Assembly (NCBI GenBank): GCA_045635725.1
Contig: JAZTWF010000026.1
Span: 1-44,408, forward strand
Reading direction: 5' to 3'
Length of the DNA stretch: 44,408 nt
Source of the DNA: Candidatus Scatosoma sp.
GTDB taxonomy: Bacteria > Bacillota > Clostridia > Christensenellales > Borkfalkiaceae
Each line of letters starts with the position of its first letter. Within the stretch, counting starts at the first letter, position 1. Position numbers and translations under genes: made by a program. Below are positions 101 through 12,577 of the stretch, one piece after another. The notes beneath the pieces were generated by a model that was not told the DNA's origin, made no database searches, and worked only from the letters and a program-made list of their open reading frames with translations.

Positions 101-281
101 TTGCGGTAAGATTTTAAGGTTCGTACTTGGCGTACGTGAGCAAGAAAAGCACATGCCCGTCGGACGGCTCAAATACAAGTAAATCAAGGAAAACGAGTAT
201 TTGCCGCAGGGAGTTTACTAAGCGTAAATGACCAAGGCAAAGCGGAGTTTGACGACGAGTTACGCCGTATTTCAGTCGTCC
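101..281. repeat. Intergenic structured repeat, copy A (full unit 163-280 plus an upstream half-unit 122-150 and shared 12-mer 102-113)
   Basis: Aligns by eye with 10121-10280. Shared blocks: tgcggtaagatt, tcaaatacaagtaaatcaag, aaagcgga-N-tttgacg, cgccgtatttca. Closing stem 163-176/267-280. Internal hairpin 214-218/224-228. Confidence 0.65.
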
Positions 282-7439: not shown

Positions 7440-8771
7440 TTATTGCATTTTCGCCATTTTTTTGACGGCTAAAATATGCATAGCGCACTCCACGCGTTTT
7501 TTCATCATAGCGCACGTCGTTTCGTACGGGTCGTTAATGTCGCCGTTGAAGTGATAGTTATTCGCGCTGCAACCGCCCGAACAAACGAATTTCGCAAAGC
7601 AATCTTCGCATTTTTTACGCGTGAATAAGCACGAATTTTTGAACAGTTCTCTCGTGTCTTTGCGCGTAATGCCTTCGTATACGCTGCCCATGCGGAATTT
7701 TTCGTCCCCTGCAAATTGATGGCAGGGATACAAATCGCCGTTGGGCGTAACCGAAAAATATTCGTTGCCCGCCCCGCAAGCGGATACGCGTTTGGAAAGA
7801 CAAGGTCCGCCTTCCAAATCGATATTGAAATGGAAGAAATTAAACCCTTTCCCTTCGGCATGGCGCGCAAGGTATGCTTCGCATAAGTTTTCGTATTCCT
7901 TCTCGATTTCGGGAATATGCTTGTTTGTAATTTGCAAATCGGGAATGTCCGTTACGACGGGTTCCATGGAAATGGAATCCACCCCCTGATCGGCAATAAA
8001 GAGCACGTCCTTTGCAAAGTCTAAATTTTTCGCCGTGAACGTACCGCGCACGTAGTAGCTCTTTTCCCCGCGCAGAGAAATGAATTTTTTGATTTTGTCG
8101 ATAATCAAATCGAACGTGCCTTTGCCGTTTATCGTCTTACGAATGGCGTCGTGCACTTCCTTTCTGCCGTCCAAGGATAAAACGACGTTTTCCATTTCTT
8201 CGTTGAAAAACGCTATCGTTTCGTCGTTGAGAAGAAGAGCGTTGGTCGTGGTGGTAAACAGGAATTTCTTTCCCACCTTCGCGCCGCGTTCTTTGGCGTA
8301 GTACACCGTTTGCTTCAAAACGTCCAAATTCATCAGCGGTTCGCCGCCGAAAAAGTCCATTTCCAAAACCTTGCGTTTACCGCTGTTTTCGATAAGAAAA
8401 TCTACCGCTTTTTTGGCGGTTTCCAAACTCATGCTTTCGCGCTTGGAATGGTATGCCCCTTCGTCGGCAAAGCAGTAGCGACAGCGGAAGTTGCAATCGT
8501 GACAAATGTGGATACAAAGCGCCTTGACTTCGTCCGATTTCATGGGATAGCTTTTGACTTCTTCTTTGAAAAGAAGACCTTGCTCTTTCAAGCTTTCCAC
8601 GTCGGAAAGAATTTCCTTGATTTGTTCGTCCGTGATATAGGTGATATCGACGGCTTGTCCTTCTTCCTTGGCTTTAAGATAATCCGCCGTGGGGGTGTCG
8701 CATTCGTGCAAAGAACCGCTGCCCACGTCGTAAATGTAATTGTGATCTTTATAACTGAAAACGTGTATCAA
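7440..8771 (-). CDS. scfB: SCIFF radical SAM/SPASM maturase (ranthipeptide thioether synthase)
   Basis: 443 aa. CX3CX2C (CNFRCRYC) radical SAM cluster. C-terminal SPASM cysteines (CGAGNEYFSVTPNGDLYPC, CEDCFAKFVCSGGC). Immediately downstream of a SCIFF precursor. Start codon is TTG (caa at 8769-8771) with AGGAG 7 nt upstream. Confidence 0.9.
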   Translation of the reverse strand: MIHVFSYKDHNYIYDVGSGSLHECDTPTADYLKAKEEGQAVDITYITDEQIKEILSDVESLKEQGLLFKEEVKSYPMKSDEVKALCIHICHDCNFRCRYCFADEGAYHSKRESMSLETAKKAVDFLIENSGKRKVLEMDFFGGEPLMNLDVLKQTVYYAKERGAKVGKKFLFTTTTNALLLNDETIAFFNEEMENVVLSLDGRKEVHDAIRKTINGKGTFDLIIDKIKKFISLRGEKSYYVRGTFTAKNLDFAKDVLFIADQGVDSISMEPVVTDIPDLQITNKHIPEIEKEYENLCEAYLARHAEGKGFNFFHFNIDLEGGPCLSKRVSACGAGNEYFSVTPNGDLYPCHQFAGDEKFRMGSVYEGITRKDTRELFKNSCLFTRKKCEDCFAKFVCSGGCSANNYHFNGDINDPYETTCAMMKKRVECAMHILAVKKMAKMQ

Positions 8772-8806
8772 AATACTTCTCCTACCAAGTTTTACAAAAC
8801 TCGGTT

Positions 8807-8840
8807 AAAAACGGCGTACAAACCATACGCCGTTTTTTTC
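8807..8840 (-). terminator. Hairpin with flanking T/A runs between scfA and scfB (probable partial terminator or attenuator)
   Basis: aaaaacggcgta-caaacca-tacgccgttttt: a perfect 9 bp GC core plus A/T extensions, with a U-run on either strand. Confidence 0.6.
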
Positions 8841-8865
8841 TGCGATTGTGAAAATTGCTTGTCGC

Positions 8866-9018
8866 TTATTTGCGTTCGATTTTATCTTCGCGCGTGATTC
8901 TTTCGCAGGACTGATTGCCTACCGTGCAGCTGGTTTTGCAAGCCGATTGACAGGTGCTTCTGCATTCGCCGCAAGCCGTTACTTTCTTTTCGGTGGGTTT
9001 TGCAATGGTCTTAATCAT
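8866..9018 (-). CDS. scfA: SCIFF six-cysteine ranthipeptide precursor
   Basis: 50 aa from ATG 9018 (AGGAGAA SD 8-9 nt upstream): MIKTIAKPTEKKVTACGECRSTCQSACKTSCTVGNQSCERITREDKIERK. Contains the near-invariant SCIFF core CGECxxSCQSACKTSCTVGNQSC. Confidence 0.92.
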   Translation of the reverse strand: MIKTIAKPTEKKVTACGECRSTCQSACKTSCTVGNQSCERITREDKIERK

Positions 9019-9055
9019 GACTTTCTTTTCTCCTATGAATGGATTTGTTGGTATT

Positions 9056-9084
9056 ATTATAATATACTTTTGAAGAAATTGCAA
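9056..9084 (-). promoter_or_regulatory. Sigma-A promoter for scfA(-scfB)
   Basis: Minus strand TTGCAA-17 nt-TATAAT, about 35 nt upstream of the scfA ATG. Confidence 0.65.
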
Positions 9085-9130
9085 GCAGTTTAGAAGAATT
9101 TAACGCACTTTTTTCTCTTTTCTGCCCGAT

Positions 9131-9514
9131 TTATTCGCTACGGCGCAAATTTACCGCAATCGCGCCGCATACCATACCCGAAAATACGGCAAGCGCAAGC
9201 TCGGCAAAAATCAACCACGAAAGCGAAAAATTACCCCCGATTGCCGAAAAGGAAAGATAGGAAAGCGCGGTAAACAGCGCGCCGATTATCCCCCCTTTGA
9301 TAAACCCCTTTTCTCCACGCACGAACAGCAGCGCGCCAAGCGCGGTGGAAACGACTTTTAGCGTTTGATTGACAGGATAAATCACGCCGTCGGAAAGGGG
9401 CGTCGTGCGGAGAATACTCGCCAAAATAATCACGCCTAAAAAAGAGAGTGCAAGGGCAAGCCCCGTGCCTTTGAGAATTTGAAAGATACCGTTTGTTTTC
9501 ACGTCCGTTTGCAT
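9131..9514 (-). CDS. Small integral membrane protein (YrzE/TIGR04086-like, 3-4 TM)
   Basis: 127 aa, Gly/Ala-rich TM helices. GGAGG SD. Position between yajC and the SCIFF genes matches the family I recall as TIGR04086. Family assignment is from memory only. Confidence 0.6.
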   Translation of the reverse strand: MQTDVKTNGIFQILKGTGLALALSFLGVIILASILRTTPLSDGVIYPVNQTLKVVSTALGALLFVRGEKGFIKGGIIGALFTALSYLSFSAIGGNFSLSWLIFAELALAVFSGMVCGAIAVNLRRSE

Positions 9515-10024: not shown

Positions 10025-10053
10025 ATGATATCCCTTTTTGGAAAAATTTGCAA
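10025..10053 (-). promoter_or_regulatory. Candidate sigma-A promoter for yajC
   Basis: Minus strand TTGCAA-17 nt-TATCAT, about 45 nt upstream of the ATG. Leader hairpin atcggc-tta-gccgat. Confidence 0.45.
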
Positions 10054-10120: not shown

Positions 10121-10280
10121 GTGCGGTAAGATTGAAACGTTGCCCGTTTGAAAAGGGAAAAACGGTTCAAATACAAGTAAATCAAGCAAAAGGAGTATTT
10201 TCGCCGTGAGCGTACTTGGCGTACGTAAGCAAGAAAAGCGGACTTTGACGCAGTATTGCGCCGTATTTCAACCGTTTTTT
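10121..10280. repeat. Intergenic structured repeat, copy B (unit 10158-10280 plus shared 12-mer 10122-10133)
   Basis: Closing stem 10161-10174/10264-10277, extendable by AAA/TTT to 17 bp, with one C:C mismatch. Internal hairpin 10211-10215/10221-10225. Homologous to 101-281. Confidence 0.65.
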
Positions 10281-11871
10281 ATAAGGCTTCGAATAATACC
10301 GTTCCGCGCTTATAAACCCACCCCCACAGCAGGGCGGTAACAGCTAAGAACAAACAGCTAACCAACGCCAAATACAGTTCTGCGTATAAGTATTTCCCAA
10401 AGAGAAAATGTCCGCCGATAACAAGCAAGGATACCCCCCAGCAAGCGAACATGGCAAGCACTACGGAAAAGCTTTGCTTGACCGCCACCACTTCATTCGT
10501 CCATTTTAAGTTGGGCATTTTCAAATTGATAACCAGCCCCAGCGTAGCGCAAAGCAGGGTAATGCAAATTAGCGTTACTATCGCGCAAACCGCCATAAGC
10601 ACGGGGATTTTGAGCAGCACGCAAATCAGCACGGTTACAGGCACTAACGGAATAAGCGTATACGCCACGTGAAACGCCGTTTTCGCGCCGAAGATTTCCA
10701 TAGCCGATACGGGCATAGAACGGAGCAACCATAAATTTTGCCCTTCCAACGATATCGACGACGCGGTGATGATATTCGACGCGGCGATAAAGCATAAAAT
10801 TACCGTTAGGATAATCGCCACTTCCCCTTTATAGATAGGCGCGTGCGCAATGGTAGCGCAAAGCTCGCCGTTAAACAGCGCAAACCCTGCGAACACCACG
10901 CCGATTACCGAACCGATACCACAGTTAAAAAGAATCATGGGGTTCTTCAAATAACGGTTACATTCCTTGAAAAAGATAGCCCAAACCGCACTGCGCGATT
11001 TGCTTTGCTTTTCCACGTATTTGGCTTTCGCACCGCTCTTTTTCATGGTAGCGGTTTTCAAAAACGTTACCGAAAGGAGCAAATACGTCAAAGCGAATAC
11101 GCCGACAAAAAGCAAGAAAAAGATAAGCATACCGACGATATCGCCAGCAGCGCCCAAGCCCATTTGACGAAAGACAAACAGCAACGGATTTTCAAAGCCC
11201 TGCGCAAGCGCGTCCCCGTTTGCCATAATAAAGGTAAGCACTTCGTTCATGTTGGAAACCAACACGGCATAACCGATAAAAAAGGCAATCAAAAGCACCG
11301 TGGTGATCAAATTTTTCGCAGGCAAGCGTGCCGTTAAAACGGCAATCAGCCAACCCAGCAAACAACTCACCGCCAATACGCCAAGCGGCAATAAAAGGGT
11401 AATTAATGCGCAAAAAATCAAGGGTAAAACGCTAAACGCCGTCAGCGTAAAATAGCGCACGATACACGGGATAAAAACGATAGACGTAAACAAAAACGCC
11501 ATAACGTATAAGGCAGTCATACGCACAAACAGCAAGACTTTGGGCGGTATGGGCATAGACAAAAGCAGGTCGTTATCCTTGGCTTCGTATAAAATAGACT
11601 TGGTCATAAATATACTGCCGATTAAGCCCGTACCGAACGCAAGCGTACCCATAAACGCAAAGTACACCCACGGCTTGCCTATGGCAAGCATACCTTGACA
11701 CATACTCTCGGAAAGCATCCACATTAAATACACCATAGCCCCAAGCGCGTACAGCATAAGGATACCCACCAAAATAAGCGTACCCGTTTTGCGTTGTTTC
11801 TTCTCTCCGCTACGGAAAGCAAATACCGACAAAAGCTCGGCAAACTGTTTTTTAAGTAAGGCTTTCAGCAT
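10279..11871 (-). CDS. ABC-2-type exporter permease, uncharacterised (about 12 TM)
   Basis: 530 aa polytopic membrane protein. Its start overlaps the stop of the upstream ABC ATPase by 20 nt. Confidence 0.7.
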   Translation of the reverse strand: MLKALLKKQFAELLSVFAFRSGEKKQRKTGTLILVGILMLYALGAMVYLMWMLSESMCQGMLAIGKPWVYFAFMGTLAFGTGLIGSIFMTKSILYEAKDNDLLLSMPIPPKVLLFVRMTALYVMAFLFTSIVFIPCIVRYFTLTAFSVLPLIFCALITLLLPLGVLAVSCLLGWLIAVLTARLPAKNLITTVLLIAFFIGYAVLVSNMNEVLTFIMANGDALAQGFENPLLFVFRQMGLGAAGDIVGMLIFFLLFVGVFALTYLLLSVTFLKTATMKKSGAKAKYVEKQSKSRSAVWAIFFKECNRYLKNPMILFNCGIGSVIGVVFAGFALFNGELCATIAHAPIYKGEVAIILTVILCFIAASNIITASSISLEGQNLWLLRSMPVSAMEIFGAKTAFHVAYTLIPLVPVTVLICVLLKIPVLMAVCAIVTLICITLLCATLGLVINLKMPNLKWTNEVVAVKQSFSVVLAMFACWGVSLLVIGGHFLFGKYLYAELYLALVSCLFLAVTALLWGWVYKRGTVLFEAL

Positions 11872-12577
11872 GGTCGTTCTCCAACTCTAAAAATACTTCT
11901 TCTAAGCTGTCGTCCCCTTTCACTTCATCCATGGTACCCGCTTTTATCAATTTTCCGCCCTTGATAATGGCTACCTTATCGCACAGCTTTTCCGCCACTT
12001 CCAACACGTGGGTAGAGAAAAAGATAGCTCCGCCCTGTTTGCAAAACTCACGCATAATTTCCTTGAGCGTGTGCGCCGCTTTGGGGTCTAAACCCACGAA
12101 CGGTTCATCCATTAAAATGAGCTTCGGCTCGTGGATCAGCGCGGAGATAACGGCAAGCTTTTGTTTCATACCGTGAGAATACGCCGCAATCGGCTGCGCC
12201 AAATCTTGCGTTAAGTTAAACGCGTCGGCGTAGTGACGGATTCTTTCCTGCCGCTCGTCTGCCGATACGCCGTAAATATCCGCTACGAAATGCAAGTACT
12301 GTATGCCCGTCATAAAGGTGTACAAATCGGGATTGTCGGGAATGTACGCCAACATTTTTTTGCAGGCGATAGGGTCTTTGGCAACGGATACGCCGTCAAT
12401 GCGAATTTCCCCCTTTTCAAACTGCAAAATACCGCAAACGGCTTTCAGCGTCGTCGTTTTCCCTGCGCCGTTGTGCCCGATAAACCCGAAAATTTCCCCC
12501 TTTTGAATATGCAAGGATAAATCGTCTACGGCATTCTTATTGCCGTACGTTTTGGTAAGATTTGTAATTTGTAACAT
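11852..12577 (-). CDS. ABC transporter ATP-binding protein (ABC-2/DrrA-NatA-like)
   Basis: Walker A GHNGAGKTTT, Q-loop, signature SHGMKQK, Walker B LILMDEP. Start set to the second ATG (12577), which has a GGGAGAAAAGG SD; the first ATG (12592) has none. Confidence 0.9.
   Translation of the reverse strand: MLQITNLTKTYGNKNAVDDLSLHIQKGEIFGFIGHNGAGKTTTLKAVCGILQFEKGEIRIDGVSVAKDPIACKKMLAYIPDNPDLYTFMTGIQYLHFVADIYGVSADERQERIRHYADAFNLTQDLAQPIAAYSHGMKQKLAVISALIHEPKLILMDEPFVGLDPKAAHTLKEIMREFCKQGGAIFFSTHVLEVAEKLCDKVAIIKGGKLIKAGTMDEVKGDDSLEEVFLELENDHAESLT

Follow-up and report, generated by a model that had tools for sequence, protein, structure and literature searches.

The hairpin lying directly behind relA in the window (the whole stretch of 44,408 nucleotides that was analysed) belongs to a multi-copy family of covarying structured units, and this unit, designated copy A, is probably (about 0.6) a member of an undescribed family of non-autonomous structured interspersed repeats of the REPIN/BOX/MITE kind. 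The hairpin behaves like a small mobile repeat and not like a relA regulator, and a locus-specific regulatory role was not supported. The family is undescribed in Rfam and the searchable literature; the type of element is already known.

The genes of the window are all of the housekeeping type, and no transposase, recombinase, reverse transcriptase or integrase was found within its 44 kb. A radical-SAM/SPASM maturase is encoded at 7440-8771 (- strand; region 7440-9131), with a gene for a 50-aa SCIFF peptide adjoining it in the syntenic loci, the two forming the known six-cysteine peptide pair.

Structure of the copies and of the family

The features referred to below are as follows (coordinates in the window, strand, description):

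90-92, - strand: start codon of the metallo-beta-lactamase-fold (MBL) gene after relA
102-113, + strand: 12-mer tgcggtaagatt, at the left edge of the copy A repeat region
122-153, + strand: fragment of a second unit, 32 bases, with the tip hairpin cgtac-ttggc-gtacg plus GTGAGCAAGAAAAGC
162-281, + strand: copy A, full unit, defined by the MFE fold, covariance-model hits of 140.8 and 122.1 bits, and covariation
162-176/267-281, + strand: P1 of copy A, with a C:C mismatch at 170/273
179-182/259-262, + strand: P2 of copy A
191-194/247-250, + strand: P3 of copy A
200-205/236-241, + strand: P4 of copy A
209-210/232-233, + strand: P5 of copy A
213-218/224-229, + strand: tip hairpin of copy A
282-284, - strand: relA/spoT stop codon TAA, flush against P1 of copy A
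282-2414, - strand: relA/spoT ORF, with the domains HD_4, RelA_SpoT, TGS and ACT
10025-10053, - strand: promoter-like site of yajC (TTGCAA-17-TATCAT), reached after copy B when read in the direction of the genes
10122-10133, + strand: second copy of the 12-mer tgcggtaagatt, 24 nt upstream of copy B
10158-10279, + strand: copy B, full unit, with P1 formed by AAAAACGGTTCAAATAC / GTATTTCAACCGTTTTT

Copy B shares its final base with the stop (10279-10281) that ends the 12TM_1 membrane-protein gene (10279-11871, - strand), and the promoter-like site of yajC is outside the element and sets the limit of the permissive spacer there. Copies A and B are long imperfect hairpins, about 80% identical to each other, which have exact 20-mers and 28-mers in common, with 0 matches expected by chance from shuffles. 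The + strand fold of copy A reaches -44 kcal/mol (z = -5.1), and copy B folds at -38.2 kcal/mol (z = -5.2) on the - strand versus -31.8 kcal/mol on the + strand. The closing stem of copy A that had been proposed from the letters alone, 163-176 (gacggctcaaatac) with 267-280 (gtatttcagtcgtc), was verified as 14 bp, with an extra pair possible at 162:281; the same is true of its differences from the stem of copy B (aacggttcaaatac / gtatttcaaccgtt), namely A:T to G:C at pair 1, T:A to C:G at pair 6 and G:C to G:T at pair 5, of the C:C mismatch at the identical stem position in both copies, and of the two swapped pairs in the tip hairpin (tttac-taagc-gtaaa at 214-228 in A, cgtac-ttggc-gtacg in B). 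A mutually exclusive fold had been suggested as well: gacgac at 251-256 is indeed complementary to gtcgtc at 275-280, but this is a property of copy A only and not a conserved alternative, the corresponding sites being gacgca/aaccgt in B and gacaca/gtcgtc in L1. A small ORF was also considered and rejected, the GTG-initiated frame of B being lost in A and all frames being disrupted by indels.

The reading of the copy A region as a full unit with part of another unit fused to it was upheld. Positions 122-150 match 10211-10239 at 28/29 bases (blastn, 96.6% over 29), and 122-153 match the centre of the relA-abutting unit in the sister strain L012 still better, at 31/32. A collapsed-repeat artefact, named beforehand as the outcome that would undo this claim, is ruled out by an independent metatranscriptome contig (X25 record 1) that covers 122-198 and with it the half-copy/full-copy junction; comparable fused and tandem units are found in the independent assemblies L010, L012, L014 and L040. 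The 12-mer tgcggtaagatt is exact at both of its sites, as had been noticed, and at no other place in the window. This box is restricted to the window's species, was not found in other genomes, and has degenerate versions at both L012 loci. Its candidacy as a promoter was rejected, there being no -35 partner or promoter call at either locus, in addition to its mutation in L012 and its absence elsewhere.

Altogether, 19 copies at 13 independent loci were gathered from MAGs and metagenomes, the hosts being uncultured Clostridia from ruminant and other guts. A scan of one genome per species with the degenerate pattern AAGTAAATCAAG..GAGTATTT returned one true and 10 chance loci, the family being absent from the latter; the true relative is L010, a Clostridia MAG obtained from the caecum of water deer, in which two full units in tandem are accompanied by fragments. 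Further units came from loci obtained via RelA homologues, the window's own RelA having no exact match on record, and then from a second metagenome pattern. The pattern AGTAARWCAAGSAAAASGARYATTT had no match in JGI metagenomes or viral contigs, no match to the family was found in plasmids, phages and viral contigs, and a second covariance model run over 360 kb of the collected loci gave no more divergent copies. Rfam 15 produced 0 hits at gathering scores over the whole window on both strands and, at E<=10, no match over copy A, the matches overlapping the left edge of copy B being noise; the literature searched by sequence words yielded unrelated primers only. The family is now defined by a usable covariance model.

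The family unit is a single long irregular hairpin of about 120-125 nt, non-coding. The covariance model, built from 17 full-length units and represented by a model alignment of 20 rows, comprises 6 helices with 38 pairs, and in this alignment 93.4% of the cells are paired and double (compensatory) changes occur in 26/38 pairs and 138 cells. None of 500 shuffles equalled any covariation measure, and the structures slid by 1-3 columns as controls had 30-42% of cells paired. Compensatory support rises as sequences are added, from 11 of the 39 predicted pairs with 4 sequences to 17 of 32 with 7 and to the above value with 20. Selection on the structure of the helices, as had been claimed from two copies, is accordingly supported by pairs changed on both sides among 17-20 sequences, to which no shuffled or slid control comes near.

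Within the unit, the outer half of P1 varies among the copies, its outer 8 bp being different yet covarying, and inner P1 is conserved as AGAT(A/G)C / G(Y)ATAT with a conserved G.A mismatch. P2 is GYAA/UURC, P3 is AAAC/GUUU alternating with AAAG/CUUU, P4 is variable, P5 consists of 2 bp, and the tip hairpin is GTAC-based with a variable loop; the purine-rich bulges between the helices (GCAAGACAAGGA, AGGGAG, GAGCAAG and TTGACGMAGTATTGCG) are conserved. Several blocks that had been taken for conserved and unpaired are actually paired, in P2 and in both versions of P3.

The better-folding strand appears to be the + strand of the window. It is favoured by 27 cells of the G:U type versus 11 of the A:C type in the model alignment, with one pair being G:C in 10 copies and G:U in 9, by a lower MFE in 13/19 copies, by a consensus structure that is more stable on this strand in 17/17 copies (mean difference of 10.6 kcal/mol), and by RNAalifold (-39.9 versus -26.8 for the - strand), and since the alignment had been fitted to the + strand model, this preference is moderately strong and not decisive.

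Placement behind stop codons and turnover at relA

It had been proposed to check whether the elements always sit just after the stop codons of co-directional genes. The position was confirmed: the 3' end of the element reaches the upstream stop codon, overlaps it or lies 0-14 nt away from it, except at L039, where a classical terminator hairpin intervenes between the two, and at L010 the serS stop codon is inside the P1 arm of the element. However, the better-folding strand is antisense to those genes, being so with respect to both flanking genes at 13/13 loci. The upstream genes (relA, the 12TM_1 protein, serS, a malK-like ATPase, pcrA, yicC, infB, rbfA, rplA and an M18 peptidase) have no common function, and the downstream genes (MBL hydrolase, yajC, RNase T-like exonuclease, rbfA and others) are unrelated, which does not agree with a riboswitch or leader. 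Several insertion sites lie within conserved operons, such as infB-rbfA and relA-MBL. Unrelated repeat families of the same genomes are likewise situated directly behind stop codons, and for this reason a part of the stop-codon rule may reflect insertion tolerance, not active targeting.

Some of these other repeats deserve description in their own right. Arrays of short variable hairpins, each with GTGAATT in front, occupy L023 12160-12379 and L024 2798-3040, directly after the stop codons of relA (with the flanking direct repeat ACTTTATTCCTT) and of a DUF3792 gene, respectively; each array is present in one genome and missing from others encoding identical RelA. A second repeat family, with the ends GTCATTCTGA...TCAGAATGAC and internal GAATCTC, was seen in L012 (~2085-2190 and ~12330-12385) and L041 (~2010-2060), and in L012 it is nested within the decayed homologue of copy B. 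REP-like repeats TTGCC(A/G)CG...CTCGCAATGAC occur at L041 1940-2010 and L047 3655-3705 and fill the L047 relA-MBL spacer.

The relA-MBL spacers compared are the following:

189 nt, window: this repeat family
5 nt, L041/L042 (RelA 89% identical): empty
10 nt, L044-46: empty
11 nt, L024-L031: empty
40 nt, L043: empty
about 230 nt, L023: different repeat
97 nt, L047: different repeat

The orthologous site is polymorphic for presence and absence: four sister lineages have no insert at the junction, which is occupied in the window's species. The notion of the element as a feature linked to relA did not survive this comparison, the junction lacking any repeat in the sister lineages and holding, in close relatives, other repeat families or a unit of another subfamily. 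L012/L013 belong to the same species, with RelA and the flanks both 98% identical, yet have a unit of a different subfamily at relA; locus B of L012 holds a decayed, diverged unit broken by an unrelated inverted-repeat element. L014 and L015 encode identical RelA (P0047) and carry different units or arrangements; L033:3081 is chimeric, its 5' arm coming from one neighbouring L033 copy and its 3' arm from a different one. Gut metagenomes, bovine and others, cover the element 5-20 times as deeply as its flanks; the DNA depth is 31-102 on the element versus about 9 on the flanks, and the contigs break at the element. The same is seen at copy B, where 'goes back 119' joints reveal units arrayed head to tail and linked by 2-3 nt. 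Units are often tandem, truncated or chimeric, and 2-20 nt separate those in tandem.

No consistent direct repeat was found as a target-site duplication in the flanks of 17 copies, a 'TA' duplication fitting only where A/T runs blur the ends of the element. A clean filled/empty pair in near-identical genomes was not obtained for this family, so the ends of the element given here are provisional. A search for empty sites with RbfA of L036 matched this protein alone. At L014 12139-12200 there is a 20-nt direct duplication, GTATATAAGCCGTTTCTTAG, composed of the unit 3' arm and the relA stop, with its copies 9 nt apart, which may be a trace of a new unit added beside the stop codon.

Another observation concerns the MBL gene of L012 (12365-12420), whose called length exceeds that of its relatives by 16 codons, owing to an open frame that extends into a repeat; by homology to the window, the true start is near 12416. 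GC skew and gene orientation indicate the - strand as leading, a result confounded by coding-strand bias; for this reason, and with dnaA about 10 kb away on the other strand, the leading/lagging call was not relied on. The genes mnmG and dnaA are 8-10 kb past relA on the opposite strand (L012 20077-22133; L023 18149-21419), and more than 40 kb of window-side genes point toward them; from this orientation, the origin may not adjoin dnaA, or the block may be head-on.

Transcripts, mechanism and rival explanations

The family is present in three bovine metatranscriptomes, where the element shares contigs, undirected and possibly including DNA, with relA (229-833) and with the MBL gene (1-95 plus 122-198); a search with only the element as query matched no run. 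The ratio of depth on the element to that on the flanks is about 7-19 times in RNA and about 5-12 times in DNA and, these ratios being similar, nothing points to a separate transcript of high abundance.

According to the preferred reading, the units act as non-autonomous mobile or recombinogenic DNA. They are multi-copy and insert into the short gap separating a stop codon from the signals of the following gene, also inside conserved operons. They form head-to-tail arrays, fragments and chimeras, and strains of one species differ through the gain, replacement and decay of units. The hairpin may be retained since a putative trans-acting enzyme must recognise one folded strand, as ssDNA or RNA, for the spread of the element, by a recognition logic that would be analogous to that of REP/REPIN with RAYT, or of attC with the integrase. 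Read-through would make the element a part of host mRNAs, and any effects on relA or the MBL gene would probably be a by-product of the read-through across a structured spacer of about 190 nt. Several facts argue against a mobile repeat: no transposase, recombinase or reverse transcriptase is located beside any copy; the outer P1 arms vary among the copies, which is unusual for terminal repeats bound by a transposase; and the strand that folds better lies opposite the sense strand of co-directional housekeeping genes, the reverse of the bias known for single-strand transposition of the IS200/IS605 type. The lack of a consistent target-site duplication counts against it as well. The strong purifying selection on the structure across distant genomes could equally mean a host function.

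One such function would be that of a cis-acting RNA in the mRNA of the upstream gene (window - strand), i.e., a 3' stabiliser, processing site, attenuator or terminator, and cis-acting 3' roles are reported for some REP, ERIC and Correia copies. This is judged unlikely, in spite of the constant position directly behind the stop codon with an orientation fixed relative to transcription, the RNA contigs linking the element with relA and the MBL gene, the better fold of copy B on the - strand, and the A-runs and T-runs around P1 in many copies, which give a terminator-like stem with a U tract in both directions. The stability of the consensus structure, the RNAalifold energies and the excess of G:U-type cells all point to the strand opposite to the gene-sense one; the element is missing in sister lineages, and its copies occur within the operons infB-rbfA and relA-MBL, where termination would be harmful. 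Intrinsic terminators are short G+C-rich stem-loops followed by a U tract, from which the family differs: the terminator scan found none at copy A or B, P1 encloses about 90 nt, and the U/A runs flank only some copies, symmetrically.

Better folding of the + strand, the conserved internal loops, the occurrence of the family in metatranscriptome contigs, and, in several copies, a P1 with a U run behind it that resembles an sRNA terminator, would be expected of small RNA genes expressed from the + strand, antisense to their neighbours, with tandem units processed from one precursor and purine-rich bulges (AAGGA, AGGGAG) as presumed binding sites for a protein or for convergent mRNA 3' ends. Such genes are nevertheless very unlikely here, as the scan of both copies found no + strand promoter-like site upstream of A or B and the upstream flanks are not conserved between the copies, the start codon of the next gene is only about 22-27 nt from the element in L034 and L035, and tandem units standing 2-20 nt apart leave no space for separate promoters. 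Besides, the RNA depth ratio is not above the DNA one, and the presence or absence of units at the strain level contradicts a needed sRNA gene. As for chance similarity, or an assembly artefact of collapsed or chimeric repeats, metagenome assemblers do break at this repeat; however, the exact words common to A and B, the same family geometry in independent assemblies from different studies, and the RNA contig crossing the half-copy/full-copy junction make this explanation hardly credible.

The mobile-repeat reading has practical consequences for annotation. A covarying hairpin by relA resembles a stringent-response riboregulator and is actually a repeat missing in close relatives, so a mis-annotation is avoided. 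The family also fragments the assemblies of abundant ruminant-gut Clostridia and creates spurious ORF extensions, as with the L012 MBL start inside the repeat and the L010 serS stop inside the element.

Comparison with known systems

MITEs are non-coding elements of <300 bp, multi-copy, with conserved terminal inverted repeats matching those of a parent IS and with a target-site duplication. Like the MITEs Correia/NEMIS and ERIC, which are 100-150 bp long, have no ORF and inverted-repeat ends, and reside in intergenic regions and operons where they are read through into mRNA hairpins, the present family is short, non-coding and multi-copy (120-125 nt, depth of 5-20 times the flanks) and occurs in intergenic sites, some of them within operons; its ends, formed by P1, are inverted repeats with an outer part that differs between copies. 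Unlike MITEs, it has no consistent target-site duplication, and its terminal arms vary while the interior is conserved; neither in the window nor in the collected loci was there an IS with such ends that could be its parent.

REP/REPIN elements are extragenic and multi-copy, lying for the most part 3' of coding regions, in gaps flanked by co-directional or convergent genes, and form hairpins in clusters or arrays, with strain-dependent abundance and with the hairpin kept by compensatory change (PMC3733652, PMC3116915). A REP is a palindrome of 20-40 bp tagged by GTAG or CGTC, and a REPIN consists of two inverted REPs (PMC3733652). The family is similar in being extragenic, multi-copy, hairpin-forming, arrayed and strain-variable, with compensatory changes, but its unit is an irregular 120-nt hairpin with 5-6 helices and conserved bulges, GTAG precedes AT(A/G)C in only 4/17 copies (otherwise CTAG, TTAG, GGAG/AGAG, CAAG or TCAA), no RAYT gene is found in the 44-kb window, and the orientation is uniform, not alternating. 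REP/REPIN with RAYT are systems of Proteobacteria, whereas the hosts of the family are Clostridia.

Among Firmicutes, BOX of S. pneumoniae, together with RUP and SPRITE, are modular repeats with complementary ends, co-transcribed with their neighbours and judged parasitic, not regulatory, with a strand bias of only about 61-63% (PMC3049150). The family resembles BOX as a small, interspersed, modular element with variable tandem modules, folded as a whole by complementary ends; there is no sequence similarity, its orientation is uniform (13/13), and, unlike the family, BOX, RUP and SPRITE are not reported flush against stop codons. It also differs, by the better-folding strand being antisense at all loci and by ends that are inverted repeats, from the PATE elements derived from IS200/IS605. 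In these, the folded top strand has the polarity of co-directional genes (lagging-strand template), and there are no terminal inverted repeats.

The integron attC site, placed just behind the stop codon or overlapping it, is an imperfect hairpin of 60-140 nt, with the folding strand complementary to the coding strand and with a structure, including conserved bulges, that outweighs the stem sequence. The family is similar to attC in the hairpin behind the stop and in the better-folding strand being the template strand of the host genes, an arrangement that, to our knowledge, has no other known example than integron attC sites. The family differs in having no R''/R' core sites (RYYYAAC / GTTRRRY) at its ends, a conserved interior sequence, essential housekeeping genes in conserved operons and not cassettes as neighbours, and no integrase in the window. 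It is conceivable, and rather unlikely, that the family is a strand-specific, structure-defined substrate of recombination or copying placed precisely 3' of stops, with the folding strand on the template strand, or alternatively an antisense RNA family made from modules; if true, the former would imply an unrecognised single-strand-specific enzyme of gut Clostridia that places hairpin modules behind housekeeping genes. We know of no RAYT-like system established in Firmicutes. The uniform antisense orientation and the flush position at the stop codon are unusually strict for bacterial interspersed repeats, and this strict geometry provides a handle on how such elements get copied in Firmicutes.
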